Origin: Nemertoderma westbladi
Lineage: Eukaryota; Animalia; Xenacoelomorpha
Length of the DNA: 46,815 nucleotides
Assembly (NCBI GenBank): GCA_032718475.1
Contig: JAUCBJ010001025.1
Span: 1 to 46,815 of the forward strand
Direction: 5' to 3'
The notes below the pieces were generated by a model that saw only the letters and a program-made list of their open reading frames with translations, ran no database searches and had not been told where the DNA came from. This document shows, in pieces, positions 3,921 to 46,506 of this stretch (its first letter is position 1; the number at the start of each line of letters is the position of its first letter). The position numbers and the translations under genes are program-made.

Positions 3921-3976
3921 ATTGGTTGCTTTATGATTGTTACCTCATTACCTCTTCTGTACTCTTTGCGTTCCAG

Positions 3977-11853: not shown

Positions 11854-12741
11854 TTTGTTTTTGTTTCAGTTTATCGGTGGATAGTTAGGCGGGCCAGCGC
11901 CAACTAAATGGGTTTGTTTTTGTTTCAGTTTATCGGTGGAGAGTTAGGCGGGCCAGCGCCAACTAAATGGGTTTGTTTTTGTTTCAGTTTATCGGCGGTG
12001 AGTTAGGCGGGCCAGCGCCAACTAAATGGGTTTGTTTTTGTTTCAGTTTATCGGCGGTGAGTTAGGCGGGCCAGCGCCAACTAAATGGGTTTGTTTTTGT
12101 TTCAGTTTATCGGCGGTGAGTTAGGCGGGCCAGCGCCAACTAAATGGGTTTGTTTTTGTTTCAGTTTATCGGCGGAGAGTTAGGCGGGCCAGCGCCAACT
12201 AAATGGGTTTGTTTTTGTTTCAGTTTATCGGCGGTGAGTTAGGCGGGCCAGCGCCAACTAAATGGGTTTGTTTTTGTTTCAGTTTATCGGCGGAGAGTTA
12301 GGCGGGCCAGCGCCAACTAAATGGGTTTGTTTTTGTTTCAGTTTATCGGCGGTGAGTTAGGCGGGCCAGCGCCAACTAAATGGGTTTGTTTTTGTTTCAG
12401 TTTATCGGCGGAGAGTTAGGCGGGCCAGCGCCAACTAAATGGGTTTGTTTTTGTTTCAGTTTATCGGCGGTGAGTTAGGCGGGCCAGCGCCAACTAAATG
12501 GGTTTGTTTTTGTTTCAGTTTATCGGTGGAGAGTTAGGCGGGCCAACGCCAACTAAATGGGTTTGTTTTTGTTTCAGTTTATCGACGGAGAGTTAGGCGG
12601 GCCAGCGCCAACTAAATGGGTTTGTTTTTGTTTCAGTTTATCGGCGGAGAGTTAGGCGGGCCAGCGCCAACTAAATGGGTTTGTTTTTGTTTCAGTTTAT
12701 CGGCGGTGAGTTAGGCGGGCCAGCGCCAACTAAATGGGTTT
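11854..12741 (+). repeat. 59-bp tandem array x15 made of the NCX last 3' splice site plus the first 14 codons of the last exon
   Basis: Acceptor AG at 11869+59n up to 12695; unit tttgtttttgtttcag|tttatcggcggtgagttaggcgggccagcgccaactaaatggg. Confidence 0.97.
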
Positions 12742-20087: not shown

Positions 20088-20555
20088 GTGATAATAGTTT
20101 ATCTCAACGCACTGTTGCAGGGCTCAGTGATAATAGTTTATCTCAACGCACTGTTGCAGGGCTCAGTGATAATAGTTTATCTCAACGCACTGTTGCAGGG
20201 CTCAGTGATAATAGTTTATCTCAACGCACTGTTGCAGGGCTCAGTGATAATAGTTTATCTCAACGCACTGTTGCAGGGCTCAGTGATAATAGTTTATCTC
20301 AACGCACTGTTGCAGGGCTCAGTGATAATAGTTTATCTCAACGCACTGTTGCAGGGCTCAGTGATAATAGTTTATCTCAACGCACTGTTGCAGGGCTCAG
20401 TGATAATAGTTTATCTCAACGCACTGTTGCAGGGCTCAGTGATAATAGTTTATCTCAACGCACTGTTGCAGGGCTCAGTGATAATAGTTTATCTCAACGC
20501 GCTGTTGCAGGGCTCAGTGATAATAGTTTATCTCAACGCACTGTTGCAGGGCTCA
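20088..20555. repeat. 39-bp minisatellite x12 (gtgataatagtttatctcaacgcactgttgcagggctca) in the ACOX3 intron
   Basis: 468 bp = 12 x 39; one substitution seen. Confidence 0.97.
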
Positions 20556-21162
20556 GAGTTGCAAAGCATCTTCTCAATGAGTAGAAATGAAGAAAAATAT
20601 GGATACTTTCTGTTGATCGATTCTGCACTCATTGAAATTAAGGGACTATAACAACTAATATTCATATTTCGTATTAATATAGTTCGTTTCCCGCACCTGG
20701 TTCGCTTACTGTTACTAAATTAACTGAAAGTCAACAACTACTCAGAATTTTTGAAACGAAAACCGTTTTCATCACCAAATTCACCATTGAATTCTGGTTT
20801 AGAAACGGTGATAAAAAAAATATCGAAAATTTTGACCAATTTGCACTCTACCCCCCCCCCCCCCCCTAACTTTATCTATGATCATGGTCACAAATATATT
20901 GCTGATAAGAACTCACTTTTGAGATGATAGTTCTTTAGGCTGAAAAGGAAAGAAAACAACCCAGAACTAAGGGTATAAAATCAGTGATCAAGAGAAAGGA
21001 GCAGGTTACAGTTTCATCAACCAAAACATTATCAAAAACCCGGAACTATGGGTAAAGTGAAAGATTTAAATTTGGCCAGAATTTGTTTATGTTTAGGCGG
21101 GGACTTCCAATTCCAATTTTGTATATATTTTCGCTTGTTTTCATCCATTCTAACTAGCCAAC

Positions 21163-22371
21163 CTCATGTATTAGCTCTTCGTTATTTCCATTGTCGCCCC
21201 CGTGTGTTATTTTATTGAACTGCCGACAGAGTTTGCGGCTGTAGCAGTCCATTGCGTACGCCGCCGCTAGGTACGGCAGCAGACGGCACTGCTGACTCTG
21301 GTATTCTAGAACTGGAATTTCGTGGAGTTTTCCAGTCGACGGCTCGTGAAACTGCTTCCGGACGGCGGAGTAACGAATCGCGATGACGAGAGAGAGTTTC
21401 ATATTGACGACTCCGATGGTTGTTATGCCAACGCGACCGCCGGACAACGAGCCCAGAGTGGCCGCGAATCGTTTATCGTCGTTGCTATAGCGACTAACGT
21501 ACTCCCCACCCTCGCTCACGTCGCTGTGTTTATTTAGAAGATTTTCCCGCGGAATCCGGTAGTTATTAAAGGAAACGAATCCGTTGTCGATCCCGTTGAG
21601 ACCCAGTTTCTTACCGATGTCGCCAACAGTAACGCCATCTAGCGGGAGCAAAGTAGTAGCTTCGCGAATCGGCGTAACGAATCCGTGTAACCCGTGGCAA
21701 CTGTCGTCTCCAGCGTATAGTTGCGCGAAAAGAACTGCGTGCGTCGCCGACTTTCCGAGGTTTCCCACCCAGAATTTGGTTGCCTCGGTATCCGGAGTGT
21801 TTATAAGAAACTCCCGCGTGTCGGCGTCGTACCGTGCCGTAGTTCGGGTCGACTTTACGTCGGAACCGTGGGATAATTCCGTCAACGCGAAACAACCGAA
21901 CAATCCCAGATCGGAAGTCTCCTCTACGAACCGACGATGTCTCGCTGTTCCCATGGCAACCACTGCCGAGCCGAACATTTGGAAATGAAGAACGAACTTT
22001 GAGAGGCAATTCCAGTCGAACATTCCCATGGAATGCTGAAAGTTGTACATCAGTAAGGGATCTTTAGCCAACCCCTCTTGCGTCACCAACTGGCATTCTA
22101 TTATTCTCCTTGTTCTCAACGCCGTCACCTCCCTGAGATCATCGTGACTCTCGCCTGCTTTTTGGGAACTTTTCGCGAACACTGGTTCCCGCTCTATTAG
22201 TTCCCAAACTCTCCGTTGATACAGCAGACTGTCACCTCCGTACCAAAGGAAACGTAGTCGTCGCCAATCAAAGCTCGCCCTGTCTCTGTAGGCAGTGAGA
22301 CCCCCAGCGGGGAGATCAGGAATCAGAGTTAGTATGTCAAGTTTCTGTCCTTCGCTTGAGACAGCAGACAT
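21163..22371 (-). CDS. ACOX3: Peroxisomal acyl-CoA oxidase 3, exon 1 (start may be ATG 22371 or 22395)
   Basis: YR.RASFDW, GCFALTELSHGS, KFWVGNLGK, GLNGIDNG, AIRYSAVRKQF motifs characteristic of ACOX3-type oxidases; donor GAG|gttggc at 21162. Confidence 0.92.
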
Positions 22372-22717
22372 TTCTAGATTATTGCATAACAGCATCCAAT
22401 AGGAAATATATTAGATGCTTTATGTGACATATTTTGATATTCCGAAAAAGCAAAAGCCTTATTGTAATGAAGAAAAGTAAAAAAAATCACTAAAAAACGC
22501 CAAACTTTAAAAAATTGAATGTAAAATTGAAGTGCATAATTTTATCACAAATATATACGTAAATAATACTACTGGTTGCTAGGAAGGAGTTGTTTCTATG
22601 TATTGTAGTGTGGAACACCTTAGTGTGTCCATATGGATTCAATCACATTGAGGTGTAACTGAAGCAAATCTGGTATGTGAAGGTGTTTGAAGGCAGCATG
22701 ATTGATGTGTTTTATAA

Positions 22718-23736: not shown

Positions 23737-26700
23737 TTATTTGAAATCACACAACAAGGCAACGCCTCGTAGGATCCAGAAGTCTGGGTGTTGGTCCGTG
23801 TGCAAAGAGAGCGAACATATGTAATTGAGATCGGTTCGTGATGGTTTCTTATAGACTGGACATTCGTACAACCGCTCCTTAGAGTTACTGGCACCAGTCT
23901 GCAAGTCGGCATAGATACGGACTACCGGTAATGGAGTGAAGAGAACTTTCATAGTGGATTCTGTGAGTTTGGATGACTTTCGGTTCCACCCTCCGCCATC
24001 CAGAAATAAACCGTAAACGAAGACCCCCTCGACGGGGGAATGACTCACTTCTTCTCGCATCATTCTTGTAACCTCGTTAGCTAGAACGACGTCATCTAGA
24101 GCCCAACCGGTGTGCGATCGGGTTGTCTCCTGACGCATCGCCGTGAGGAAACCCTGCGGGTTAAACATTCCCGTCATCCAGAAGCAGTTAGGTCGACCTT
24201 CGAGAATCCAGGATCGCATTTGGGCATTGCGATCTAGCAACTCAGTAAACCAGAAACCCAAGGTGGAGCTCAGCCAGGAGACTTTGGCCCAGGTGTCCGG
24301 CACTCGTGCATTGAACATGTTGTCTAGGGCATCCTGGAGGATCTCATTCATTATGATGCTGCCCTCGATGGCCAACTTGAGGTCATGGAGGGTGGTGCGA
24401 ACCGATGTTATCACTCTCTGCATCCGATGCAACTCTTGGCGTAGGAATATATTCAGCGGTTGAGTGACGCCGTATGATTTAAGTCTTTCTTTTACTTTGA
24501 ACGGGTTGTAATCCGGAGGTAATTTCTCCTCCATTTCGGAGGCCATCCGAAGAACTTGTGTTTCTCTACTTTCCCCACTAGAGGCGTTTGATTCCTTTGG
24601 TTGTATATTCAATATAGTAGCGAGACAATCATTCGCGAAGTTGGTCTGGTAGGTGATGTCTGCATTGGGATGCAGACCAAATGCTTGTGGGGTATCAATT
24701 AAAGGAAGCTTGTCAATGTGGTTACGAATTTCCTCAAGTTCACTATCTCTTGGTATCGTGTACCCAATGTAGAAATTAAACTTCCGATCGAAAAGGTTTT
24801 CCCCGAACCAAACTCTGGCAAATGTGTTAAGCAACCTCTTATCAAAATCGTCTGTAACTCTTCCACCATAATGGACTTCCCCTATCATATATCGGATGGT
24901 AACCCAGGATACCCCGCGCTTGGTGTCTAAGTCATCCAGATGATTCTGACACACCATTACTGTCGCGCTAAAGTCAGCTTGGTTGAACTCATATGGAATG
25001 TTCCAGCCAAGGGGACCGAATTTACGGCGCTCTTGAACGACGCTATGCAGGAATGCAACTGCATACATCAGAGGTTTCCATTCCATTCGGTGTGAAATAT
25101 CCAGCTGTTCCTTAGTAACTTCTGCGTAAGTTCGCTTCAACCCAGCCTTCAAGCCAAGTGGAGGATCATTTGTGAATTTAATACTCGCTTGGAGTAATGA
25201 AATAGGGAACAACACATGGGGTTCCGTTGTTATCCAAACTCTCATTGCTGGGTCTATTTGCTCTGTTGTGGTAATCAACTCTAATAATTCGCTCATAAAA
25301 TTTAAATCTAAATGACAGTTTTGGAAGAGACACCAGCCTCCATTACGCATCATTTCCTTGAGTATGCGTCTCGCATGAACCTCTTGCCCTTGACCCATAG
25401 AGATGTCTTTGCAAATGATATTGTTATATTTCGCTAATTTCTCTATATTGGACGTGGGGTCGGATCCCATGCTCAGGAAGCAGATCAGGGGACTTCGGCA
25501 ATCTGATTCTTTCTTCCACATCTCCTCTAGATTTGTAACAACTGGAGCTGTGAACTCTTCTCCCAATGACGATGCCACATACATTCTCGCCTGACTAAGG
25601 ATTCTGTCTGGACACCAACATCGAATGAGAAGGAGTTTGTTGAATGTTGATAGGTTGTCATAGCCATCGGGAATGGTCACTGCTTCAGGTGCCTCGCTCT
25701 CAAACCAAGACTTCCAACTTTTCTCATTCTGATTCACCTGCTCCAAAATATTGTGAAACAATGGTAACTTAGAGAGTTGAACCAAATTTAACCAGGTTGT
25801 GTCCGTGATCCACCGTTTAGGTTTTGTTGGAGCCGAGATGAGATCAAGCATAGCACCACCCATAATAAATGTTTGGAATTCTTCATATCTTATGTTTTTT
25901 AAATTAATATCAATTTTTAGAGCCAATAATATAGTAAACATAAATTTGTGCATTTCATATAAACCTCTAGCTGTGTACCTAAATACTTCAAAAGTTAGAT
26001 ATTCCATTATGTTATGCACTCGTCTACTCGTGATGGGACTTTTAACCGATTGCACCATTGAATTGTGAAATAGGTTGAGGAATTGTTTCAATGATGTCTG
26101 ATACATTTCATTAACCAGAGAAATTTCTACAATTAAGAAATATAGAATGGATCCACGATTAGCTATTGGTCGGTATTCTTCTCTGGCTGCATTTATTTGT
26201 AATTCAGTTTGGGCAGCTATTGTAAGTTTTTCTTTAACCTCATTGGATACTGCCTTAGTGACACCTAATACTTCAATAAGGGACTGGTCTTCAACCAATG
26301 AACCCTCCACAGATGACAACTTCTGCAATAAATTTTCCTCAAGTTCCTGTAGTTTCTCTTTATTTGCTGTAACTTCATCAGCAAGACGAGTGCTCTCACT
26401 TTCCAATTCACTTTTCTCGTTTTTGGTAACAAGACCCAGTAACTGATCCTCAAGTCCCTTCATCGTCACAGTGAAATCTATTATAGAAGTTCGAGAAGAT
26501 ATCTCTGGTGTGTAATTAGGATTTGATAACTTTGTTGTTATGTAGAGACGAAATCCTTTAGATATATCAATCTCTTTGTCACCAACTGTAACTTTAAATG
26601 TTGAACCTGATTTGAAATAGATTTTTTCTAAAACATTGTCAAGACATGGGTCAAGCTCATCTCTCACATCCTCCAGTAACAGAGGCTGACCTAGAGATAT

Positions 26701-29700
26701 CGCATCCTCTAAATGAGTTCGGAAATACTTGTTGTCTAATTGTGTCACTATCATGTTGTTTTCACTTTCTTTATTTTTGATCCAATATTTAGCCTGAATT
26801 TGTGGGTCAATTACAAGAGGGTACCGAGAAGAATTGGTTACAATGACACCATTCTGTATACTAAGTTCATCACTAGGCAACCCTTGCAGGTTCCACCGAG
26901 AAACTGTGACTTTATCAACCAGCATATCATTAATATCAATTGATTGACTGTAAGGAATCGACCTGTCACCAATTATTTGTCTTGTTCGTGTTATAAGTTT
27001 TTGTCGGAATAGTTGATTGAATGGACCAGCATATGAAAGAAACCCTGTAATTAACAACGCATCACCCATTAATTTAAACAACTGTTCTTTAAACAGTCGA
27101 CTGCTCTCTGTCCACCGAATGCGCTCCCCTCCCAAACCCTGGATCAATTTGCTAGCACTCTCCATCTTAAAGCGACAGGCGTCCAACCGGTCAACTAAAT
27201 TCTGTTTGAATCCCATTACTGTATCATACCTCACCTGCACTTTCATCAATTCTTCTTCCTTTTCATTCAAAGCCACCTGTGCTTTTTCTAATTCATTATT
27301 AGCACTGACCAGTCGGTGCTCCTGAGCAGCTAGTGAAGCCTTTAAGGGTAAGACTTCTCTGTTAACAGAAAAAAACTTGGACATGGCAATTGTCCATGCT
27401 AGCAATCCAGCAACATTTCCAGACACCTTCTTAGCTGTTTCCATGTTATAATCAGCCATTTTTAAATAAGGTTCCATTAATTCAACAATCTCATCATTGA
27501 TACAGTCTTTGTCAAAATTTAGCAAATTAGATAAGAACTTTGAATCACCCATAACCTTCAGCGATTCACCCCATGATGCTTTCGGACATGTTTTTTCCAA
27601 ATCTGGAGAGCAAGGATCGAGCGGTTTCTGGAATAAAATGAGAACGCAGTCCAAAATCCTCATAATGAGATGAGGAGGTTTACCTAGCTTTCGAACAGTC
27701 GCTATATCAACGGCTTTAATTGTCTGCAATGCCATCTCAGCTTCCTCAAGAGCTGGTCTTGCTACTTCCAACTTTTCCTCAGCAATAGCCTTGTCACTCT
27801 CTATTAAATCAACTAGATCCTGGGCGATATTCTTAACGGACTCTACTTGTAGTTTCACTTTCTCAGCCGCATGGGCAAACTCTGCCACTTCTTTAAGGAC
27901 AAGATCTGCCTCTACTGTTGCTTTATCTAGCTCTACCTCTGTGACGACCAATTCCTTTTGCAGTTCATTAACACTTACAGTGGCCTCATCTAGCTTTAGG
28001 AGACCGGTATCCATTTTTTGATACGAATTTTTCAGAGTAGCACTTCTTTCTACATATATACTGTTATAACCATTAAGAAATGACAGATAACTTTTGGGGG
28101 TAACATGAGTTTGGCGTCGAAATCTCTCAAAATATGACGAGCACATTTCAGTTACTTCCACATGGACATCTGCCATTGCCTCCACTAGATAATTCTTGAT
28201 GTGCTGATAGTTTTGAAAATCTAAGTCTCTCGAATACTGAACAGAAACTGCAGTCAAAGCATCACGCGGCCATATTTGGAACCAGTCAATAGTGCAGCCC
28301 GAGATTAGAGCAGGAAATTTTAAAGCTCTGCTTTGAAATTGATTCCCAGCAGACGAGAAACAAAGAGTTACATGGAAATTCTTTCCTACTCGGCTGTAAA
28401 AGTAATCAATTAAATTTTCTTGGGTGGGTGGATGTCTGGGAAATTCTTTTTTCATAATTGGGATTAAATTGCTGCATATTTCATCCATTTCATCCTTGGC
28501 AAACAAATTTGACACTTCGCCACTAGCTAAAACATTGTTCATTGGTTCCAAAAACATTTCATCTTTAATATCATTATCAGTAAAGATGAAAGTTAATCCT
28601 TTTCCCTGCTCACCTGTTATGCGATACATCACCTTGAGATCAGTTAGAAAGTCGGCAACATTGTAGGAACGTGTAAGAGTAATTCGGTAGGTACTATAAC
28701 CAGCTATAAAGGAGGCCAATTTCGTGAGACTCTGCTTGCCACAGCCACCTACACCAACTAACAACGCATGTCCCTTCCATGTGCGAATAATACGGGAGAT
28801 TCTCATCAAATGTATCATAGCATCATCGAAAAATACCAAGTCCATTTCCCCCCCTCTAGATTCTTCATTGCATTCAGCCATGTGTTCCAGGAGCTTGGAT
28901 TTTAATTTATCAAATCCTGGAATGGGTTCATAAACCTTTGGAGCCATAAGATCATCATCGTCGACCTCATCACCTGTTGGTTCGGGGGCTTCCCTGAGAA
29001 AATCAACAAAATATGAATCTTCTTTTAGAAAGTCATTACATTCAATTTTCAGTTCCGATTGAAGTAGGTCTCTCACTGTCGCATTAAACCATTGCTTATC
29101 TACCTGGTTCACAAATCGATCAGCAACAACACGTTCTATTTCATGTCGCCAAAGCTCAAAGAGTCTGGATCTCGAGTTTATAACATCCGCAGTGGAATTC
29201 AGCATCCCTTGCCAAATTCTACTCAAATCCCTGAGATTAAAAACATAATGAAATTTTCCTGGAATTGGTAACATTTTGATTTTCGTACATTGCCATATGA
29301 GCCTGGTTAATGAGACTAGTTGACTAACACATTCTACTACCTCTGTACAAAAACCTCTCTCAGTAATAAAGTGCCCACATCCAATAGTGTTATAGATCTT
29401 ATCAATACTGTTGTTGCTAGGAAGAGTGCAATTAAAAACATTAAATTGACGACGAAGTCGTTCAGGAATGTTGTTTCTCCCTCCTCCTGGATGAATCATT
29501 GCAGCCAGAAACTGGACATCAACTATTGTCGTAAAATCTCCAGGTTTATCCAAGTTATAGAAACCAGAAACATCTAATAGTTGCCTGACGATTTCATTGG
29601 TCACTTGATCACCCCACTCATTAATTACTGGCATGTTAATGTCATCAATGAATACTGTCATTTTCTTACCAGCCCGAGGTCCATAAGTGTGACCAACATG

Positions 29701-32700
29701 CTTCTCCACAAAACTCTCTATAGTTCTTTGATACATGAGAGGTGTTGTAGCGCTGCTGAAGTTCAAATTATTATTGATATGAAATTCTGAATCAAACTTC
29801 GACAAAAATGTCTTTATCATGACTGTTTTGGCAGTTCCCTGCTCACCTATCAGCAAAACTCTCTTATTCTGTTTATGTATAATGTGTATTAGAAATTCAG
29901 TCCTGACATTATCCACATTTGGCACGAGAATGGAGAGGTAATTTGGTGTGCAGTCTTTAGGGTATAGATATTCTGGAACTCTTTCCGACCAATGGCACCA
30001 CTCTAAATTATCACAATCTATAGCATAATCAAATATTGTGTCTCGCTCAAGGGGCAAATCAAGAGATCCAATGTCCCTAAGTTTCTCCTGAAATTTAACG
30101 CGATCACTTAATTCTAAAGCAGCACCAAGGGACCACATCAGTGAGAAAGTAAACAACCTTTCAACTCCATTATCTGGTAATTCTACTTTGGAATTGTGGT
30201 GGTGACCTGGGTAAGCCATGTTGTCATTATCACTTGGTAACATACCGTCAAGAATATCAAGGCTCTGCCGAACATACATACATTCCAAGAGCTCTATCTT
30301 TGGATTGAGATATTCGACCAAATATTGGTACATTTCTGGAAAATATTGCTGATATAAGTTTAAAATGGTTGTTTTCATGGAAGGCTTCCTTTCAGTCCAA
30401 GCCAAAACGAGGGGTTCCCAAGTAATAACCGAGCTGGAAAGAAACACTATTCCATTGCGAGATACAGTAGCTGGTGAGGCATTGTCGATATTTTGAGGTT
30501 CAAATATTATTTTACAATTTGGAGCCATTGGGATTCTGTCACCATTAGCTAGTGTCAACGTTCTATTGTCATCTAAAACAGAGTTGAGATTTTCTATCCA
30601 AATTGCATCTACTGGGCCATCCAGGACAAGCCACACATTATCTGACTTCTTTAGTTTATGAGTTCGTCGCCACAATGTAGAGAATATTCCATCTGTCCAG
30701 TCATTGGTAGCCACATCCAACTGGCCAAACATCTGAGATGCAGTCACAGCCTTTGGGTTCATTCTCAGTTCCTTATGAGGTAAATCGCAGATGGTCATGG
30801 CACCCATAAGGGTGTGAATAATCTCTGTTTTACCTGCGCCACTTGGACCTAATGTCATGATTCCCCACCGGACTAGTTGCGTTTCATACAACTGTATACA
30901 CTTAAGGACCCAGGGTTTGTGATCTATTAGAGAAGACTCCTTTATAGTACGGGAGAGAGCCGCCTCAAGTTCCCTATAGACAGCTTTATCGAGAGCTATA
31001 CCTGGGAAACAATCATTTATGAGACTAAGAAACAGAGGCTCATCTTCGTCAATCAATTTCGAAAGGTTCATATCTCTAAGAACTCGCATTACCACTTTCG
31101 GCTCAGGTTCATTTGGATTTTGCCTTTTCACACCACCCAGAGTTCTTAAAACCGAAAGAATGTTTCTCAATCCGAAATCATAGTGAACTTGTTTGCTGAG
31201 TTGCTCTTCACAAAGTTTGTATAATGTGTAGAATTTCCTCGACAAGATTATGTTTGCTTGAAAGCCTGTTATCGCTAATTTTACTCTTATAATAATTAAT
31301 CTGTCTGGGACCATCATAGCAACAGTTCGGAAGTTGATCTTCAGATTCTCAGGCAACTCCTGTCTCCCGGCATATCCTGGATTCATTGTGATGAACAATC
31401 CAAATGAGGGATGGAGAGAAACATTGTCTCCATCAGTAAAGATGAACTCTGATTTTCTCTCTCGCTTACATTGAAGGACAATAGCTATCTGTTGTGCCGC
31501 TACAGATAATACATTCAAATTGATTCTGTTGAATTCATCGAAACAACCCCAGCTACCTGACTGTGCTAAACCTTTAAAAATTCTACCCAGACCTCTGAAG
31601 TCCATCTGTTCCGAACAATTAAACACGACCACATAAGCTCCGAGAGTCCTTCCCATATCCTTAGTAGTCTCAGTCTTCCCAGTACCTGCAGGACCGGCTG
31701 GAGCTGCGCCCAGGGCTAACCCCAACGCCTGGGCAACTGTAATATAACACCTATCAGTAAGCGGTGTAATAACCAATCGCTCTCTGCAACCTATGAACTC
31801 ATACATATAACCAAACTTAATGTCTGTAATGTGGACAAAGCAGGCATCTACATCCTCCTTGAAATATATTCTTGTTTGTTTTAGCCACTCAAAATCATTT
31901 TTGCTGCGAACCCTAAGGCGGCACAAGTCATCAAATATATCTGTCTGGTGTATATGAATGGTAATTAGAGTTTCATATTTAAGACGTTCAAATTTTGCCA
32001 AATCTTGCGTTGTCACTTTTATCAGTGTGTTAAGCATTTCCAACCAACTTTTGTTGGTAGAATGCATTATTTTCTTGTCAAAAGCTGCCCGTTGCAGGGC
32101 AACTTCGCTGTCTCTCGTCCAGATCATCTGTATGGCCAACAGCACTACTTGAGATATATACGATGTAGAAAACTCGAGTAACTCAAACTCTTCGTCACCG
32201 ATGGTGTCATTGGCATCTTTAATTACTGAGTGCAATGATGCACGCTGGGATTGGAGTAGGTCGTTGAGCCAATATTCAACATTACCAGCAGCGATTGTCG
32301 GCTTGTGAAGTTCTAATTTGTCACCTTCAGCTGAAAGAACATCTGTTATTTTATCATACTGTTTGGAACAGAATGTGACATGGGCTACATTATCGAATAT
32401 GGATAGAAGATGAGACTGTATTGTGTGACTATCAGATGCTTGGCCCAGAATTTCTAAAAGTGCTGTGTCAGAGACAAAGAAAAATCGTGGAAACAACAAC
32501 CTTTTTTTCTCCAGATAACCCGTTAGTGACTTTTGACAAATTTCCAATAACTCCAAAAGATGGGGCAACATTTCTGATAAAATCTCATCCCCAGTACAGC
32601 AAAGCAAAACATTGGGTGTTTCATGTGCCTTAGTCATTATTTTCTGCCATGATTTATCTATTAATGCAAATCGCTTAGCTTCTTCGGGCAGTTGTTTTGC

Positions 32701-35437
32701 AATATCTCCCCCAACAAACACTGCTTCAAGATAAACCCAGATATTTTGAACCTGCAATAACATCTCAACTATGTCATTTGACTGGGATAACTTTGCAATG
32801 TATTTCTGCAACTCGGCTTTGAATGGCAAATTGTATCGGTTGCTCATTAATGTGCTCAGTATCATCATAGAATCTTCCATTAGGGCAATCAGTTCAATGA
32901 CTGAATCGCCCTTTAGCAACAACTCACCACGATTTTTAAATTGTCCAAATTTAAATATCTGCATTTCCCAGGTAGTCTTCATAGCTTTCAGTTTTGCTTC
33001 AATATCCAATTCCTTGAGCGCTGCAATACAAATATCTTCAATGTCCTCCTTGTGATGAAGAAGTGAAACCTCCATAACATCTTTCAATGTCAGAAAATCG
33101 TTCAGTATGTTTATATCGGCTCCAGTGACCTTGTTTATTCTGGACCAGTGCCTTTCCTTCATTGCCTTGTTTGTCATCATTTCAATGAGAGGGCAGGTTT
33201 CAGTCAAATCATCAACACATTTTTTTAGTTCGGTGAAGGCTGGATAATCTTTGAGGGCCCGCGGAAGCCTCTTGCATTTCTTCTGAAACTCTTGAAGATC
33301 CTCAGAAATCTTAATGATATCAATTTCTGTCCAAGTTGTTTCGTTATATTTTGCTATGCTGACAAGTACAGAATTATAAAGGGTGTATAACTTCCAAAGA
33401 AGTACCAGTTCCTTTTTTACTCGGTGAAGTTCGGGGTAGCTAGTTACAGGTAAACCAAAAAGTAGTTCGCCTCCAGAACATGTCTCATAGCTAGCCCATA
33501 ACTCGTCAAACTGCAATTGATAGAAACTTAGACTCTCATAAGCTTCTGTAGGGCTAATACCGGGGGTTGTTGGGCCCTTTTCGGTATATTTTTCCAGGAA
33601 AATATCAAAATCTACCTGAAAAGTGTTAATGGCAGTTAACAACCCGGTCTTAAATGATTGCTGGATCTCCAACAAAATGTCCTGCTTCTTTGCAGCATCA
33701 GATAAGATATTACGCATAGCATACCCCAATGAATCTACCTTCTCTTGAGTGCCTTGCTCGCAAATAACTCCATGTCTATTAAATAAAAAATATGCTTCTT
33801 CAACTTTCTTTACATCTACCTCCATGTCTAGCTGTTTGTCACGAACATCAACTAATGCAGTCATGACAGTCCGGATGCTATCCAGAGATTTTACTTTTTT
33901 ACTTAAATTCTTCTTGGTAGCAGTGAGAAAGTTTGATATTTCATTCATTTTAACATTGATGTGTGCTGTGATAGTTCTCGCGAATTCCTGTTTCCACGTA
34001 TTGCAATCCTGCAACAAACCTAGCTTCAAGGGTTCCAGTCTCAGTAATAATGGTCCTACTCTATGCTCTGATGGTATATTTTCTATTGTCTTTTCAAGAA
34101 ATGAAAATTCGCGTATTTTTAGGCTGAAGTCGTATAGAAGGTCTTTAGATTGATCAGCGGCATCAGAGGCGCACTTTACAGGGTCATTGTTCCATAAATG
34201 ATTGTAGCTCTGAAACTGCTCAAGCCAAGAGCAGATATCGCTCTCAATCTCTGGAATCAAAGAGTTCAGCTTATATGCGGCTTTGGCGATGTCTTTATTA
34301 TCATGAAGAACTTTAAATATTGATTTTACTGTCATTGTTGTCTTCAAATTCGGGGAATCTTCCATTGGATTCATCTCGGAAATAATGAGTGCATCTTTTT
34401 TCTCCATTTCAATCCGGGTATGGTCGTGATTCCAGTTGGGGAAATCCGTTCCGATTCCAATAAGTATTTGGCCTGCTTGGTTTATTGCACTCTGTATCTC
34501 ATCCAGTCCAGGTTTACAAACAATATTCGGAATCTCTAAAACAACGTCAGTTAAAAATACAGGGGGAAGAGATGCATTCCTTCCATGATGTAGTTGTGCA
34601 TCATACACACATTTGCGAATGTATTTAATATTCTCAGCAACACAACGGGACAAAACGTCGAGATTTTTAGCACCAAATAGAGTTAAGGTGTCCCAGAAAT
34701 GGCAAGGAAGGCACTCTTTACACCGTTTAACCTTGTATTTGCCCAGTGGGTTTCTGCAGAGGTAATACGGGGCTTCCATGTTAATGAGTTCATCAGGGAG
34801 AAGCTCTTTCTTCAACATGTGGAACAGTTCATTTATTGAAACCTCGATAAACTGACTGGCCGACGCGAGAGTTTTTCTACTAGCATTCACTACTTGCTGC
34901 GTCATGTTTATGAATTCTTGTATTGATACCGGTTCCTCTTCTGGTATAAAACAAATATCTGTAGATCTTATTTTCTGGAACGTGTTTTCTATACGATTCT
35001 CCAAAATTTCGCTAGCGCGACGTGTTACGAGTTCGAAGTGAGATAGTTGGCTTTCGACGTTACTGATGAAAACATTGGAATTTAAAGACATCCAAGTGTG
35101 AATCTTTATCCCCGGTAACATTTCATCGAATAGTCTTAAACGATAACCGGTCATCAGTGGTTCAATAATGGGGGGCGTGTTCTTTATGATTATCCTATAA
35201 TGTGTGAGTAAATTGTTCACTCCATTATAGGTTTTCTTTAATTCCGGTTCTTTATGAATCAGCTGTCTAGCAAAGGTAGGGAGTTCCAGGCCCATCCTCG
35301 CCATATGTTTCGATTCATCGATAAGTTCTAATATCGATCTATCGAAGTTGGTTTGAAACAAGTCTGTCTCCGGGTCTTGGAAGAATAGACAGGAATTCAG
35401 AGCCGTCCTTACAACATCAACCATTTTAATCCATGCA
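23737..35437 (-). CDS. DNAH5: Axonemal outer-arm dynein heavy chain (DNAH5/DNAH8 type), 11.7-kb terminal exon: tail, linker, AAA1-6, stalk, C-terminus
   Basis: P-loops GPAGTGKT, GPSGAGKT, GEQGTAKT, GVGGCGKQS; WGCFDEFNRI; C-terminal WILRGVALLCD; acceptor tttcgcag ending at 35438, phase 2 giving YH-S-AWIKM. DNAH5 versus DNAH8 cannot be settled by eye. Confidence 0.93.
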
Positions 35438-35511
35438 CTGCGAAATTAAAATAGTAGATTCAGATAGATATAATTACCATCTTACATTATGTCAACTTCT
35501 CCGCTCAGGTG

Positions 35512-35695
35512 GGATATCATCGTCACTTAGAAACGGATATCATCGTCACTTAGAAACGGATATCATCGTCACTTAGAAACGGATATCATCGTCACTTAGA
35601 AACGGATATCATCGTCACTTAGAAACGGATATCATCGTCACTTAGAAACGGATATCATCGTCACTTAGAAACGGATATCATCGTCACTTAGAAAC
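35512..35695. repeat. 23-bp minisatellite x8 (ggatatcatcgtcacttagaaac)
   Basis: 184 bp = 8 x 23, perfect; 74 bp from the dynein acceptor. Confidence 0.97.
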
Positions 35696-36235
35696 AATCA
35701 ACATCTGGTACGTGTTTTGAGTATTATACCATTGTATGCTAATTGTAAGATTATTTACCCTACAGTTAGTTGTAGTGTTAGCAACTAGTATAAAAACGAT
35801 ATTTCAATAATATTTCTAAACATTACAATTTAAAAGCTAATAATTAAGCAATCAGAAGACCGATTAGTTGACATAATGTAATAAAATTACGTATATCATT
35901 GTGTGAAACTATTAGCAATATTCAGCGTTTATGACCCTAGTATATTTATGTAAACCCTCTAACTGGGCTCGCCTGGGCCATAAAGAAAAATATTGAATTT
36001 TTCTCACAATTATGTAAATTATTGTTACTACAATATTTGAATGCGAATTAAGTTCGTCAAAAAAACGACTCTATAAAATGTGTGAAAATGGTTCATACTA
36101 ATATTCCAAATATAGAACGTGGAACTGTGGAAATTTACTCATGATGAGAACAATAACATACCACTCACTATTCAATAACGATTACTTTTACTTTTCCGTG
36201 AACATAACATAACAAAGAATCAGCCGTATTGGATG

Positions 36236-39200
36236 AGCCACTCACCTGCAGTACAACATTTCGTACTGTATCAGCCACTCACCTGCAGTACAACATTTCG
36301 TACTGTATCAGCCACTCACCTGCAGTACAACATTTCGTACTGTATCAGCCACTCACCTGCAGTACAACATTTCGTACTGTATCAGCCACTCACCTGCAGT
36401 ACAACATTTCGTACTGTATCAGCCACTCACCTGCAGTACAACATTTCGTATTGTATCAGCCACTCACCTGCAGTACAACATTTCGTACTGTATCAGCCAC
36501 TCACCTGCAGTACAACATTTCGTACTGTATCAGCCACTCACCTGCAGTACAACATTTCGTACTGTATCAGCCACTCACCTGCAGTACAACATTTCGTACT
36601 ATATCAGCCACTCACCTGCAGTACAACATTTCGTATTGTATCTGCCACTCACCTGCAGTACAACATTTCGTACTGTATCAGCCACTCACCTGCAGTACAA
36701 CATTTCGTACTGTATCAGCCACTCACCTGCAGTACAACATTTCGTACTGTATCAGCCACTCACCTGCAGTACAACATTTCGTATTGTATCAGCCACTCAC
36801 CTGCAGTACAACATTTCGTACTGTATCAGCCACTCACCTGCAGTACAACATTTCGTACTGTATCAGCCACTCACCTGCAGTACAACATTTCGTACTGTAT
36901 CAGCCACTCACCTGCAGTACAACATTTCGTACTGTATCAGCCACTCACCTGCAGTACAACATTTCGTATTGTATCTGCCACTCACCTGCAGTACAACATT
37001 TCGTACTGTATCAGCCACTCACCTGCAGTACAACATTTCGTACTGTATCAGCCACTCACCTGCAGTACAACATTTCGTACTGTATCAGCCACTCACCTGC
37101 AGTACAACATTTCGTACTGTATCAGCCACTCACCTGCAGTACAACATTTTGTACTGTATCAGCCACTCACCTGCAGTACAACATTTCGTACTGTATCAGC
37201 CACTCACCTGTGGTACAACATTTCGTACTGTATCAGCCACTCACCTGCAGTACAACATTTCGTACTGTATCAGCCACTCACCTGCTGTACAACATTTCGT
37301 ACTGTATCAGCCACTCACCTGCAGTACAACATTTCGTACAGTATCAGCCACTCACCTGCAGTACAACATTTCGTACTGTATCAACAACATTTCGTACTGT
37401 ATCAGCCACTCACCTGCAGTACAACATTTCGCACTGTATCAGCCACTCACCTGCAGTACAACATTTCGTACTGTATCATCCACTCAACTGTGGTACAACA
37501 TTTCGTACTGTATCAGCCACTCACCTGCAGTACAACATTTCGTACTGTATCAGCCACTCACCTGCTGTACAACATTTCGTACTGTATCAGCCACTCACCT
37601 GCAGTACAACATTTCGTATTGTATCAGCCACTCACCTGCAGTACAACATTTCGTACTGTATCAGCCACTCACCTGCAGTACAACATTTCGTACTGTATCA
37701 GCCACTCACCTGCAGTACAACATTTCGTACTATATCAGCCACTCACCTGCAGTACAACATTTCGTATTGTATCTGCCACTCACCTGCAGTACAACATTTC
37801 GTACTGTATCAGCCACTCACCTGCAGTACAACATTTCGTACTGTATCAGCCACTCACCTGCAGTACAACATTTCGTACTGTATCAGCCACTCACCTGCAG
37901 TACAACATTTCGTACTGTATCAGCCACTCACCTGCAGTACAACATTTCGTACTGTATCAGCCACTCAACTGTGGTACAACATTTCGTACTGTATCAGCCA
38001 CTCACCTGCAGTACAACATTTCGTACAGTATCAGCCACTCACCTGCAGTACAACATTTCGTACTGTATCAACAACATTTCGTACTGTATCAGCCACTCAC
38101 CTGCAGTACAACATTTCGTACTGTATCAGCCACTCACCTGCAGTACAACATTTCGTACTGTATCAGCCACTCACCTGCAGTACAACATTTCGTACTGTAT
38201 CAGCCACTCACCTGCAGTACAACATTTCGCACTGTATCAGCCACTCACCTGCAGTACAACATTTCGTACTGTATCAGCCACTCAACTGTGGTACAACATT
38301 TCGTACTGTATCAGCCACTCACCTGCAGTACAACATTTCGTACTGTATCAGCCACTCACCTGCTGTACAACATTTCGTACTGTATCAGCCACTCACCTGC
38401 AGTACAACATTTCGTATTGTATCAGCCACTCACCTGCAGTACAACATTTCGTACTGTATCAGCCACTCACCTGCAGTACAACATTTCGTACTGTATCAGC
38501 CACTCACCTGCAGTACAACATTTCGTACTATATCAGCCACTCACCTGCAGTACAACATTTCGTATTGTATCTGCCACTCACCTGCAGTACAACATTTCGT
38601 ACTGTATCAGCCACTCACCTGCAGTACAACATTTCGTACTGTATCAGCCACTCACCTGCAGTACAACATTTCGTACTGTATCAGCCACTCACCTGCAGTA
38701 CAACATTTCGTACTGTATCAGCCACTCACCTGCAGTACAACATTTCGTACTGTATCAGCCACTCAACTGTGGTACAACATTTCGTACTGTATCAGCCACT
38801 CACCTGCAGTACAACATTTCGTACAGTATCAGCCACTCACCTGCAGTACAACATTTCGTACTGTATCAACAACATTTCGTACTGTATCAGCCACTCACCT
38901 GCAGTACAACATTTCGCACTGTATCAGCCACTCACCTGCAGTACAACATTTCGTACTGTATCAGCCACTCAACTGTGGTACAACATTTCGTACTGTATCA
39001 GCCACTCACCTGCAGTACAACATTTCGTACTGTATCAGCCACTCACCTGCAGTACAACATTTCGTACTGTATCAGCCACTCACCTGCTGTACAACATTTC
39101 GTACTGTATCAGCCACTCACCTGCAGTACAACATTTCGTATTGTATCAGCCACTCACCTGCTGTACAACATTTCGTACTGTATCAGCCACTCACCTGCAG

Positions 39201-42200
39201 TACAACATTTCGTACAGTATCAGCCACTCACCTGCAGTACAACATTTCGTACTGTATCAACAACATTTCGTACTGTATCAGCCACTCACCTGCAGTACAA
39301 CATTTCGTACTGTATCAGCCACTCACCTGCAGTACAACATTTCGTACTGTATCAGCCACTCACCTGCAGTACAACATTTCGTACTGTATCAGCCACTTAC
39401 CTGCAGTACAACATTTCGTACTGTATCAGCCACTTACCTGCAGTACAACATTTCGTACTGTATCAGCCACTTACCTGCAGTACAACATTTCGTACTGTAT
39501 CAGCCACTCACCTGCAGTACAACATTTCGTACTGTATCAGCCACTTACCTGCAGTACAACATTTCGTACTGTATCAGCCACTCACCTGCAGTACAACATT
39601 TCGTATTGTATCAGCCACTTACCTGCAGTACAACATTTTGTACTGTATCAGCCACTCACCTGCAGTACAACATTTCGTACTGTATCAGCCACTCAACTGT
39701 GGTACAACATTTCGTACTGTATCAGCCACTCACCTGCAGTACAACATTTCGTACTGTATCAGCCACTCACCTGCAGTACAACATTTCGTATTGTATCTGC
39801 CACTCACCTGCAGTACAACATTTCGTACTGTATCAGCCACTCACCTGCAGTACAACATTTCGTACTGTATCAGCCACTCACCTGCAGTACAACATTTCGT
39901 ACTGTATCAGCCACTCACCTGCAGTACAACATTTCGTACTGTATCAGCCACTCACCTGCAGTACAACATTTCGTACTGTATCAGCCACTCACCAGCAGTA
40001 CAACATTTCGTACTGTATCAGCCACTCACCTGCAGTACAACATTTCGTACTGTATCAGCCACTCACCTGCTGTACAACATTTCGTACTGTATCAGCCACT
40101 CACCTGCAGTACAACATTTCGTACTGTATCAGCCACTCACCTGCAGTACAACATTTCGTACTGTATCAGCCACTCACCTGCAGTACAACATTTCGTACTG
40201 TATCAGCCACTCACCTGCAGTACAACATTTCGTACTGTATCAGCCACTCACCTGCAGTACAACATTTCGTACTGTATCAGCCACTCACCTGCAGTACAAC
40301 ATTTCGTACTGTATCAGCCACTCACCTGCAGTACAACATTTCGTACTGTATCAGCCACTCAACTGTGGTACAACATTTCGTACTGTATCAGCCACTCACC
40401 TGCAGTACAACATTTCGTACAGTATCAGCCACTCACCTGCAGTACAACATTTCGTACTGTATCAACAACATTTCGTACTGTATCAGCCACTCACCTGCAG
40501 TACAACATTTCGTACTGTATCAGCCACTCACCTGCAGTACAACATTTCGTACTGTATCAGCCACTCACCTGCAGTACAACATTTCGTACTGTATCAGCCA
40601 CTCACCTGCAGTACAACATTTCGCACTGTATCAGCCACTCACCTGCAGTACAACATTTCGTACTGTATCAGCCACTCAACTGTGGTACAACATTTCGTAC
40701 TGTATCAGCCACTCACCTGCAGTACAACATTTCGTACTGTATCAGCCACTCACCTGCTGTACAACATTTCGTACTGTATCAGCCACTCACCTGCAGTACA
40801 ACATTTCGTATTGTATCAGCCACTCACCTGCAGTACAACATTTCGTACTGTATCAGCCACTCACCTGCAGTACAACATTTCGTACTGTATCAGCCACTCA
40901 CCTGCAGTACAACATTTCGTACTATATCAGCCACTCACCTGCAGTACAACATTTCGTATTGTATCTGCCACTCACCTGCAGTACAACATTTCGTACTGTA
41001 TCAGCCACTCACCTGCAGTACAACATTTCGTACTGTATCAGCCACTCACCTGCAGTACAACATTTCGTACTGTATCAGCCACTCACCTGCAGTACAACAT
41101 TTCGTACTGTATCAGCCACTCACCTGCAGTACAACATTTCGTACTGTATCAGCCACTCAACTGTGGTACAACATTTCGTACTGTATCAGCCACTCACCTG
41201 CAGTACAACATTTCGTACAGTATCAGCCACTCACCTGCAGTACAACATTTCGTACTGTATCAACAACATTTCGTACTGTATCAGCCACTCACCTGCAGTA
41301 CAACATTTCGCACTGTATCAGCCACTCACCTGCAGTACAACATTTCGTACTGTATCAGCCACTCAACTGTGGTACAACATTTCGTACTGTATCAGCCACT
41401 CACCTGCAGTACAACATTTCGTACTGTATCAGCCACTCACCTGCAGTACAACATTTCGTACTGTATCAGCCACTCACCTGCTGTACAACATTTCGTACTG
41501 TATCAGCCACTCACCTGCAGTACAACATTTCGTATTGTATCAGCCACTCACCTGCTGTACAACATTTCGTACTGTATCAGCCACTCACCTGCAGTACAAC
41601 ATTTCGTACAGTATCAGCCACTCACCTGCAGTACAACATTTCGTACTGTATCAACAACATTTCGTACTGTATCAGCCACTCACCTGCAGTACAACATTTC
41701 GTACTGTATCAGCCACTCACCTGCAGTACAACATTTCGTACTGTATCAGCCACTCACCTGCAGTACAACATTTCGTACTGTATCAGCCACTTACCTGCAG
41801 TACAACATTTCGTACTGTATCAGCCACTTACCTGCAGTACAACATTTCGTACTGTATCAGCCACTTACCTGCAGTACAACATTTCGTACTGTATCAGCCA
41901 CTCACCTGCAGTACAACATTTCGTACTGTATCAGCCTCTTACCTGCAGTACAACATTTCGTACTGTATCAGCCACTCACCTGCAGTACAACATTTCGTAT
42001 TGTATCAGCCACTTACCTGCAGTACAACATTTTGTACTGTATCAGCCACTCACCTGCAGTACAACATTTCGTACTGTATCAGCCACTCAACTGTGGTACA
42101 ACATTTCGTACTGTATCAGCCACTCACCTGCAGTACAACATTTCGTACTTTATCAGCCACTCACCTGCAGTACAACATTTCGTATTGTATCTGCCACTCA

Positions 42201-44763
42201 CCTGCAGTACAACATTTCGTACTGTATCAGCCACTCACCTGCAGTACAACATTTCGTACTGTATCAGCCACTCACCTGCAGTACAACATTTCGTACTGTA
42301 TCAGCCACTCACCTGCAGTACAACATTTCGTACTGTATCAGCCACTCACCTGCAGTACAACATTTCGTACTGTATCAGCCACTCACCAGCAGTACAACAT
42401 TTCGTACTGTATCAGCCACTCACCTGCAGTACAACATTTCGTACTGTATCAGCCACTCACCTGCTGTACAACATTTCGTACTGTATCAGCCACTCACCTG
42501 CAGTACAACATTTCGTACTGTATCAGCCACTCACCTGCAGTACAACATTTCGTACTGTATCAGCCACTCACCTGCAGTACAACATTTCGTACTGTATCAG
42601 CCACTCACCTGCAGTACAACATTTCGTACTGTATCAGCCACTCACCTGCAGTACAACATTTCGCACTGTATCAGCCACTCACCTGCAGTACAACATTTCG
42701 TACTGTATCAGCCACTCACCTGCAGTACAACATTTCGTACTGTATCAGCCACTCACCTGCAGTACAACATTTCGTACTGTATCAGCCACTCACCTGCTGT
42801 ACAACATTTCGTACTGTATCAGCCACTCACCTGCAGTACAACATTTCGTACAGTATCAGCCACTCACCTGCAGTACAACATTTCGTACTGTATCAACAAC
42901 ATTTCGTACTGTATCAGCCACTCACCTGCAGTACAACATTTCGCACTGTATCAGCCACTCACCTGCAGTACAACATTTCGTACTGTATCAGCCACTCACC
43001 TGCAGTACAACATTTCGTACTGTATCAGCCACTCACCTGCAGTACAACATTTCGTACTGTATCAGCCACTCACCTGCACTGCAGTACAACATTTCGTATT
43101 GTATCAGCCACTCACCTGCAGTACAACATTTCGTACTGTATCAGCCACTCACCTGCAGTACAACATTTCGTACTGTATCTGCCACTCACCTGCAGTACAA
43201 CATTTCGTACTGTATCAGCCACTCACCTGCAGTACAACATTTCGCACTGTATCAGCCACTCACCTGCAGTACAACATTTCGTACTGTATCAGCCACTCAA
43301 CTGTGGTACAACATTTCGTACTGTATCAGCCACTCACCTGCAGTACAACATTTCGTACTGTATCAGCCACTCACCTGCAGTACAACATTTCATACTATAT
43401 CAGCCACTCTCTGCCACTCACCTGTGGTACAAAATTTCATACTGTATCAGCCACTCTCAGCCACTCCCCTGTGGTACAACATCTCGTATTGTACCAGCCA
43501 CTCACCTGTGGTACATAATCTCGAATTGTATCAGCCATCAGCCACTCTCTGCCACTCACATGTGGTACAACATTTATACTGTATCAGCCACTCTCAGCCA
43601 CTCACTCACCTGTGGTACAGCATTTCGTATTGGATCAACCACTCACCTGTGGTACAACATTTCATATTGTATCAGCCACTGTGGTACAACCTTTCGTACT
43701 GTATCAACCACTCACCTGTGGTACAACATTTCATACTGTATCAGACACTCTCTACCACTCATCTGTGGTACAACATCTCGCATTGTATCAGACACTCTCC
43801 GCCACTCACCTGTGGTACAACATTTCGTACTGTATCAGCCACTCTCAGCCACTCACCTGTGGTACGTACAACATCTCGTATTGTATCAGCCACTCTCTGC
43901 CACTCACCTCCGGTACAACATCACGTATTGTATCAGCCACTCTCTACCACTCACCTGTGGTACAACATTTCATACTGTATCAGCCACTCTCTGCCACTCG
44001 CCTGTGGTACAACATCACGTATTGTATCAGCCACTCTCTGCCACTTATCTGTGGTACAACATTTCATATTGTATCAGCCACTCTAAGCCACTCACCGGTG
44101 GTACAACATTTCATTCTGTATCCGCCACTCTCAGCCACTCACCTGTGGTACAACATCTCGTATTGTATCAGCCACTCTCTGCCACTCACCTGTGGTACAA
44201 CATCTCGTATTGTATCAGCCACTCTCTGCCATTCACCTGTGGTACAACATTTCATATTGTATCAGCCACTTTCTGCCACTCACCTGTGGTACAACATCAC
44301 GTATTGTATCAACCACTCACCTGTGGTACAACATTTCATACTGTATCAGCCACTCTCTGCCACTCATCTGTGGTACAACATTTCATATTGTATCAGCCAC
44401 TCTCTGCCACTCACCTGTGGTACAACATCTCGTATTGTATCAGCCACTCTCTGCCACTCACCTGTGGTACACCATCTCGTATTGTATCAGCCACTCTCTG
44501 CCATTCACCTGTGGTACAACATTTCATATTGTATCAGCCACTCTCTGCCACTCACCTGTGGTACAACATCACGTATTGTATCAACCACTCACCTGTGGTA
44601 CAACATTTCATACTGTATCAGCCACTCTCAGCCACTCACCTGTGGTACAACATCTCGTATTGTATCAGCCACTCTCTGCCACTCACCTGTGGTACAACAT
44701 CTCGTATTGTATCAGCCACTCTCTGCCACTTACCTGTGGTACAACATCTCGTATTGTATCAGC
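36236..44763 (-). repeat. About 220-copy 37/47-bp array made of the last 30 nt of a dynein exon plus its 5' splice donor
   Basis: Minus-strand unit tggctgatacagtacgaaatgttgtactgcag|gtgag versus exon end gtgctgatacaatacgagatgttgtaccacag|gtaagtgg; the array runs into the exon to 44763. Confidence 0.97.
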
Positions 44764-45113
44764 ACTGTCGACAACCGATTGTACCTCCGTATTGCCACAC
44801 GGGCCTGCGGTGTCGACGCTATCTTCGGCATCTTTCTGATTAATTCCATCGGGATGTTTATCCTACGGAACAGCTGACGAGCCCAGATAATCTTTCCGGC
44901 TACAGGCGGCATGTTCCGTTCTATAGGTGGGTCCATCTTCTCGGCCTCGTATTGCCGCGAGCAGGATGATAAGTCCTGCTCGTATCTCTGGACCACCATC
45001 TGGTACTTGTTCTCTACATCGAGATTCGCTCCAACTATATTCTCGAATTTCTCCAGAGCGATCAACACTAGTTGGGTGGAAAGTTTATGTTGGAAGAAAT
45101 TATCCATGAAAAC
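44734..45113 (-). CDS. DNAH5: Dynein heavy chain exon (VFMDNFF...DPPIERNMPPVAGKIIWARQLFRRI...LIQYEMLYH)
   Basis: Conserved DHC N1 motif RN.PP.AGKI.WARQL; acceptor ttctcag ending 45114, donor CAG|gtaagt at 44733. Confidence 0.93.
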
Positions 45114-45264
45114 CTGAGAATAAATAAATACAATATTAGATACTCATATTAGGTGCTCAGTGCTCAGTAGGAACTCATTGTTATTTAATAATTACGCGCA
45201 ACACCCTATATCATAATAGATCGTTGATATTATATGTTATCATTTATGTAATCGAGCAACGAAC

Positions 45265-45591
45265 CTGAAGCCACTGCTGTATCTGTTTAACATTATTCAT
45301 AAAGACCTCGTAATCATCGTTAAAGGCCATTAGATGGATGTCGTACATATCGTAAGACATGCGTTTCTTCGTCGTGGCAACCATGCTCGCGAACTTTACG
45401 GCTATCACATCAATCCCGTCGAGGTTCCACGTCCCGAGGGCCGCGAGTTCGTGGATCTTTATCAACATGTTGCTGATCTTCTCCAAACGACCGCAGAAAA
45501 CGTCGATTTTACCGAAAATCCGAGTCGTTGATAAATTAAACTGTTTAGCATTTGGGTCGGTCTTCTGTTGGTCTTTAAGGCGGTAGTAACA
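45265..45591 (-). CDS. DNAH5: Dynein heavy chain exon (CYYRLKDQQ...IFGKIDVFCGRLEKI...QQWLQ)
   Basis: IFGK...F..RL.KI motif; acceptor tttccag, donor gttcgt at 45264; 327 bp, phase 0/0. Confidence 0.9.
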
Positions 45592-45888
45592 CTGGAAAGC
45601 GATAAACAGAGACGTCAATAGGTGAGGAAGGAAAGGAAGGAAAGGATGAACGAGGAGAGATGATTTATAAAGGAAAAATACATACTTGGATAAATATAGT
45701 GGTAACCTTATAGTTGGTTATAATAATGCTACTTTCTCATTGTTTATAATGTAACGGTTGGCGAATAATTTGTCTTTCTGATCCGTTGAAATTAATAATT
45801 ATCACATTGAATCGAGACCGTTCCCTTTAGCGTGCAATTTGTATGTTATACCCGTTATTTACAATAAAGCTGTCCCTCCCTTCCTTAC

Positions 45889-46142
45889 CGCTTGGTAAAA
45901 CTCTTTCAGTTTCAAACAATGACCAATTCTCTCCCTCAAATCGGCGGAGTCTATATCCCATACGTCGTCCCCCAACTCACGGATACTCGATTTACACGAT
46001 ATTATCATTTGATTGGTTACTTTACTTAGCAACGAGGCTATCTTATCGCTCGTATTGTAGTACTGACTTATGTTGTAAATCATCTTTATTGTGTCCATTA
46101 AACCCGGTATGAACTCCAGCATATTCTTTGGGGTACTAGCTC
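45889..46142 (-). CDS. DNAH5: Dynein heavy chain exon (GASTPKNMLEFIPGLMDTIKMIYNISQYYNTSDKI...KVTNQMI...FYQA)
   Basis: IKMIY.IS.YYNTS.KI and KVTNQ motifs; acceptor tttgcag, donor gtaagg at 45888. Confidence 0.92.
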
Positions 46143-46231
46143 CTGCAAATTATTTACAAAATGTGATAATACAAATAATCTACTGTATTAATAAATAGAA
46201 GTTAAAAAATGGTCTGTTAATCCAAACTCAC

Positions 46232-46355
46232 CCAAAGGTCCAAAGTAAGTGTCGAGGGTGTAGAGATATTTCACGTTGTTCTTGGCGATATTGCTGGATT
46301 CTGTTATCTGCTTATCCAGATCACGCCATGTGTCAATGATTTTGCTTTGTGCAAC
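46232..46355 (-). CDS. DNAH5: Dynein heavy chain exon (VAQSKIIDTWRDLDKQITESSNIAKNNVKYLYTLDTYFGPL); gene continues beyond the window
   Basis: W...D..IT...N.AK.NVKYLYTL motif; acceptor acacag, donor gtgagt at 46231; phase 1 fits next exon. Confidence 0.9.
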
Positions 46356-46506
46356 CTGTGTAATAAATTTAAATATAAATAAATAGTTAAATATATATTA
46401 ATAATAAATTGTTGACTGTATGCCTCAAATCGAACTACCCGGAACAAAGGCAAAACAAATAGCGGAAGTTCATGTTGGTGTGCTAAGACAGGTGTATAAT
46501 ACCTCC

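Follow-up and report, generated by a model that had tools for sequence, protein, structure and literature searches.

A dynein exon-intron boundary repeated about 220 times within one intron of Nemertoderma westbladi, probably spliced out in a single step

The window analysed here covers positions 1 to 46,815 of contig JAUCBJ010001025.1 of Nemertoderma westbladi (Xenacoelomorpha; assembly GCA_032718475.1). Its minus strand holds an 8,528-bp tandem array (44763 to 36236) inside an intron of a DNAH5-like axonemal dynein heavy chain gene. This array is probably a minisatellite derived from a duplicated exon-intron boundary of the dynein gene, the intron being most likely removed in one step from its first donor, with the roughly 200 later donors silent or rarely leaking. 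An earlier sequence-only reading had seen about 220 donor copies over 8.5 kb, each shaped like a recursive (ratchet) splice site, and had proposed that the array could be removed stepwise and expand at little cost. The number agrees with a script count of 220 junction-like sites, and the proposal is weighed below. The parts of the gene and of the array are as follows:

46355-46232, 46142-45889 and 45591-45265, minus strand: three upstream dynein exons with short introns, in a joined model without internal stop
44734..45113, minus strand: 380-nt coding exon of the DNAH5-like axonemal dynein heavy chain (DHC_N1 in Pfam; human DNAH5 residues 554-678)
44728..44736, minus strand: authentic donor CAG|GTAAGT, with the intron starting at 44733; the sole GTAAGT among the 30 exon-proximal sites
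43421..44763, minus strand: exon-proximal zone, more diverged, mostly 47-mers; 30 junctions, 22 of them AG|GT
36236..43420, minus strand: homogeneous 37-mer zone; 190 junctions, 175 AG|GT and 9 GTAAGT, with all three minus-strand frames closed
37747..42534, no strand assigned: 2,394-bp block duplicated in tandem as a higher-order repeat (copies 99.8% identical) and itself containing 798-bp blocks
35438..36235, minus strand: remainder of the intron on its 3' side, outside the array; holds a 23-mer x 8 array (35512-35695), fragments of a dispersed high-copy repeat and, at 35438, the authentic acceptor
23737..35437, minus strand: single terminal exon of 11.7 kb, encoding about 3,900 aa of dynein

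The last 30 nt of the 380-nt exon are the template of every repeat unit, as the 37-mer consists of these 30 nt and the first 7 nt of the intron, and the 47-mer of the same 30 nt and the first 17 nt of the intron. GTRAG is found in 199 of the 220 units, so that the splice signal is reiterated in most of them; AG|GT is present at 197 junctions and broken at 23, CAG|GTRAGT stands at 193, and CTGAT with its A at -26 at 194, in line with the earlier claim that nearly every unit carries a CAG|GTGAGT-type donor and a CTGAT about 26 nt before it. Of the 219 intervals between junctions, 206 measure 37 or 47 nt, a trivial consequence of the repeat, and after each AG|GT site the next donor lies 37-94 nt downstream, a distance like that of a recursive-splicing exon (RS-exon). 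Outside the array, the remaining 38 kb of the window contain AGGTRAG three times on the plus strand and four times on the minus strand, the density within the array being far above chance. The array junctions are copies of one duplicated site and not independent, and the block duplications place the copies still further from independence. Within the 37-mer zone (37500-43340, minus strand), where a unit ends in the exon-like CCACAG, the donor after it is nearly always a dead TT, a pairing that is probably one event spread by block duplication. The open frames of about 7-8.6 kb in all three plus-strand frames (36179-44877) were rejected as genes, since they follow from a unit that has no stop codon in the plus-strand direction.

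Joining 44733 to 35438 removes an intron of 9,296 nt and results in a five-exon model with an open frame of 4,262 aa and no internal stop, whose alignment at the junction is free of gaps within 10 aa in all 118 junction-spanning homologs (120 in the set). Reading past 44733 gives His-Arg-stop, the immediate stop already noticed for this donor by the sequence-only reading, and the same occurs for all four later donors tested. As judged from these translations, only the first donor would yield an intact, conserved protein. The best homologs of this dynein are 52-53% identical and spread over many animal phyla, and the 11.7-kb exon compared to the short 5' exons and introns suggests a 3'-biased intron loss. 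In the intron outside the array, at 35720-35960, the pieces of dispersed high-copy repeat have a summed contig depth that in three runs exceeds the flank's by factors of up to thousands.

The ratchet-like motifs have a coding source, as CTGAT is part of Leu-Ile codons and CAG part of His-Ser codons at the dynein exon end; both AG|GT and CTGAT were inherited from the duplicated exon end. AG|GT also ends five of the 10 real donors modelled in the window, so a duplicated donor would often resemble a ratchet point. Regarding donor strength, the first donor matches the U1-pairing consensus at 9 of 11 positions, compared to 8 for most copies.

The acceptor half of the units is predicted to be poor, as measured with a model trained on 12 hand-curated acceptors of the dynein, Na/Ca exchanger and acyl-CoA oxidase genes. 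The units have 8 pyrimidines in 16 positions with a longest run of two, whereas the 12 real acceptors have 9-14 with a longest run of 3-6, confirming the weak tract for which the sequence-only reading had named plain skipping as the alternative, now the better reading. The matrix scores of 0.46 for the 37-mer and -1.78 for the 47-mer are lower than those of 10 of the 12 real acceptors (leave-one-out), and another AG lies between -25 and -3 in 185 of the 220 units and in none of the 12 real acceptors. In addition, RNA folding predicts an 8-bp hairpin from -23 to -4 of the 37-mer, over the would-be pyrimidine tract, an example being:

36286..36305, minus strand: predicted hairpin of 20 nt in a 37-mer unit

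This hairpin has a predicted RNA folding energy of -7.3 kcal/mol in the 37-mer versus -1.8 in the exon version. For positions -12 to -5 to be wholly unpaired, the predicted probability never exceeds 0.012 in the 219 downstream units, compared to a median of 0.055 (range 0.009-0.35) in the 12 real acceptors. By score, extra AG and predicted paired tract, the units fall short of the normal-strength acceptor that defines a ratchet point, within the limits of the small training set.

The array grew by unit and block duplications. The 27 proximal units compared have 19 haplotypes and the 189 distal units have 20, that is, a homogeneous centre with a diverged edge, as concerted evolution would leave. 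Constraint on the signals was assessed by counting distinct alleles, which blunts the block duplications, over 13 signal positions of 37. In the proximal zone (27 of 30 units, three with indels being dropped), 9 of 24 distinct variants fall on signal positions (p=0.83), and in the 37-mer zone (189 of 190 units) 10 of 21 (p=0.26), so no depletion of variants at AG, GT or CTGAT is seen within the array, with the low power of 24 and 21 alleles. An origin of the whole intron by a duplicated coding AGGT (Rogers model) was rejected, as 35438-36235 and the start of the next exon are unlike the unit.

A second boundary array in the window, in the Na/Ca exchanger gene, serves as an internal control:

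11854..12741, plus strand: 59-mer x 15 array that repeats the last acceptor together with the opening 43 nt of the final exon in the Na/Ca exchanger gene

The full C-terminus, matching human NCX1, is obtained from the last copy alone (exon from 12696), while the other 14 acceptor copies would truncate the protein, the first of them with an in-frame stop. Its junction is not AG|GT, showing that boundary arrays arise and persist in this window without ratchet escape. A donor-like GTGAGT variant is also present in seven of the 15 copies, the last included.

As a possible course of events, a short duplication across the dynein donor would have expanded by slippage and unequal exchange, with the 47-mers formed first and the homogenised 37-mer later, as their divergence indicates. 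The first donor may win since it is transcribed first, borders the 380-nt exon and has one more base paired with U1 than most copies have, through an oriented 5'-3' selection such as that of human F7. Leak products would carry a premature stop and could be cleared by nonsense-mediated decay, and the predicted hairpin of the 37-mer would hide the would-be acceptor and may help DNA slippage.

Several observations weigh against a single-step removal from the first donor. Nine copies deep inside the array, the additional GTAAGT donors, match U1 as well as the first donor does. RNA folding does not predict the first donor to be more open than those of the 37-mers, and structural masking of downstream donors found no support, the 37-mer donors being predicted no less open. 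Among exonic AGs, 8% have CTRAY within the branch window (38% have YTNAY), so the array unit, having CTRAY, is better equipped than most of them. The 37-mer acceptor outscores 93% of 797 exonic AGs and 87% of 207 intronic decoy AGs (67% for the 47-mer), and it scores above the 47-mer, so that from its sequence this would-be acceptor appears weak but not dead, in a model whose training set is small. The low power of the variant test counts here as well. The 11.7-kb downstream exon is not definable in the usual way, which makes the pairing of this intron uncertain. In the literature, tandem AGGT sites of human UBC serve as dual donor and acceptor sites (PMC10809524), and the authors of the F7 study cite a duplicated-site study with the opposite outcome (PMC1557585).

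A low-level stochastic use is possible, if on balance doubtful, whereby a few transcripts are spliced from donor two or three, or at an AG|GT inside the array, and dynein mRNA is lowered in proportion to the length of the array, without any dedicated function. It is compatible with removal from the first donor as a side path, and similar use has been seen in CBS and 6-16 (PMC1557585) and in ABCA7 (PMC5954066), besides the low-level use of unannotated AGGT sites that is widespread in human RNA (PMC10809524, PMC13105047). However, F7, LMNB2 and PDGF show none (PMC1557585), and the first dynein donor is the only GTAAGT of the proximal zone.

Regular stepwise removal, in which splicing from the first donor to an AG inside the array restores a donor, round after round up to the true acceptor, is improbable. 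The logic of the sequence-only reading is right in that splicing of the exon end onto whichever of the 196 AG|GT sites further down would restore a CAG|GTRAGT-type donor with the mRNA unchanged. The geometry also fits, with CTGAT at -26, a donor after each site at a distance comparable to the approximately 50 nt of the Drosophila RS-exon (PMC8605326) and an expanded 37-mer that has a better acceptor score than the exon-like 47-mer. Precedents exist in the tandem dual sites of UBC (PMC10809524) and in a duplicated coding AGGT that can splice at 6-16% (PMC3265369). Nevertheless, nothing in the sequence indicates use: the motifs are coding-derived, no constraint is seen on the signals, and the tract is weak, contains AG and is predicted to be base-paired, whereas Drosophila ratchet points are ultraconserved (PMC8605326). 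Intermediate steps are unneeded in the precedents (PMC1557585), and since the regenerated donor merely equals the next ones, each step would risk a stop-containing insert. It is equally improbable that the duplicated exon end, with its CTGAT...CAG|GT, made about 200 ratchet points at once, through which the intron is regularly removed and the minisatellite licenses its own expansion. Growth of such arrays can do without this escape, as the acceptor-type exchanger array expanded nearby without AG|GT.

Selection for the hairpin-forming 37-mer, which would mask its own acceptor and prevent the inclusion of pseudo-exons, is also unlikely. Four bases differ between the exon end and the 37-mer consensus, and three of these changes each extend the stem by one Watson-Crick pair; an equally good fold is reached by 127 of 5,000 random four-base changes. 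However, the four changes are transitions without exception, and when the random changes are restricted to four transitions, 581 of 5,000 reach such a fold, leaving no evidence of selection; a single unit folds no better than its own shuffles (z -1.05), and stem-breaking variants are common. Template switching at an imperfect inverted repeat would yield the same stem pattern neutrally.

DNA-run contigs over 44690-46400 and 35700-36290 continue through short introns, without splice joints, and the distal array edge varies among runs, with a 33-nt skip in X1 and X3 and other letters in X2, in contigs that do not span the array. For 33000-35437 a look-up returned no RNA run containing the stretch, a result that is silent on expression. 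That the array or its length is an assembly artefact is hardly credible, despite the 99.8% identity of the duplicated block and the lack of any array-spanning contig, as contigs of two studies, one of which may be the source of the window, contain both flanks and both unit types, the summed unit depth is tens of times that of the flanks (a depth, not a copy number), and a few bases distinguish the block copies; what is in doubt is the exact array length alone.

Tandem repeats make up 47% of the window, and two of its 10 arrays span a splice site, which is near chance (expected 0.77, P=0.18; the boundary count is approximate). Within exchanger introns, a 45-mer x 87 array of 99% identity (1-3928, plus strand) ends about 50 nt before an acceptor, with five of six frames largely open and a donor-like GTAAGG in each unit, and a perfect (CCGA)n microsatellite of about 227 copies is found at 8303-9212. 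The acyl-CoA oxidase gene (18247-22410, minus strand) has two exons, and its sole intron (19120-21162) contains a 39-mer x 12 array.

On this reading, the dynein array is a large natural case of a known curiosity. With about 200 nearly identical donors ahead of an 11.7-kb exon, it lends itself to studying how the spliceosome settles on one of them. As the proximal 47-mers and the distal 37-mers differ in sequence, splicing intermediates would be distinguishable in long reads. If recursive use were true, the array would offer a one-step origin of ratchet points, that is, a birth mechanism for recursive splicing, and a reason for the low-cost growth of such arrays.

By its sequence, the dynein array appears to belong to the known class of exon-intron-boundary minisatellites of the mirage and F7 type, its first unit spanning the authentic boundary. 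A literature search, which covered few subscription papers and included PMC13196383, found no description of recursive splicing through a donor-spanning minisatellite. The 37-bp variable number tandem repeat (VNTR) in F7 intron 7 likewise has a first unit that spans the exon-intron boundary, with the donor reiterated in the intron (PMC1557585). There, donor choice is an oriented 5'-3' selection; the first donor alone is used in F7, LMNB2 and PDGF, and the next two are also used in CBS and 6-16 (PMC1557585). In all five, as in the dynein gene, donor copies lie in the intron and later donors would give aberrant mRNA, but they have 5-25 copies compared to about 220, their unit is mostly intron whereas the dynein unit is mostly exon (30 nt), and the F7 site is UGG|gu instead of CAG|GT with CTGAT upstream (PMC1557585). 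The VNTR in ABCA7 intron 18 also contains its donor and, at up to about 427 units and 10.7 kb, provides a precedent for the size of the dynein array; its 25-bp, C-rich unit begins at GT, unlike the dynein unit, and an isoform retaining one unit acquires a premature stop (PMC5954066).

Regarding recursive splicing, UBC resembles the dynein array in having a tandem array with an AGGT per unit able to act as donor or acceptor; however, its units are coding and in frame and their use was shown by RNA (PMC10809524), whereas those of the dynein gene lie in the intron and carry stops in every sense frame. Drosophila ratchet points share the juxtaposed AG|GT and a downstream donor within about 50-100 nt; they need the RS-exon, which stays in when the downstream donor is the stronger of the two (PMC8605326). 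Nevertheless, they are few, constitutively recognised and placed in very long introns, compared to about 200 unconstrained weak copies in 9.3 kb. Human recursive sites are often weak (PMC13105047). The closest likeness in an invertebrate is to the lancelet mirages, minisatellite-like duplications of donor or acceptor boundaries that are said not to disturb splicing (PMC3087553, PMC3902484). The dynein array is much longer, and its dynein is 52% identical to lancelet DNAH5 proteins; as in the lancelet, the donor and acceptor kinds occur in one genome, and the arrays have a homogenised centre, a diverged edge and units within 10-160 bp.

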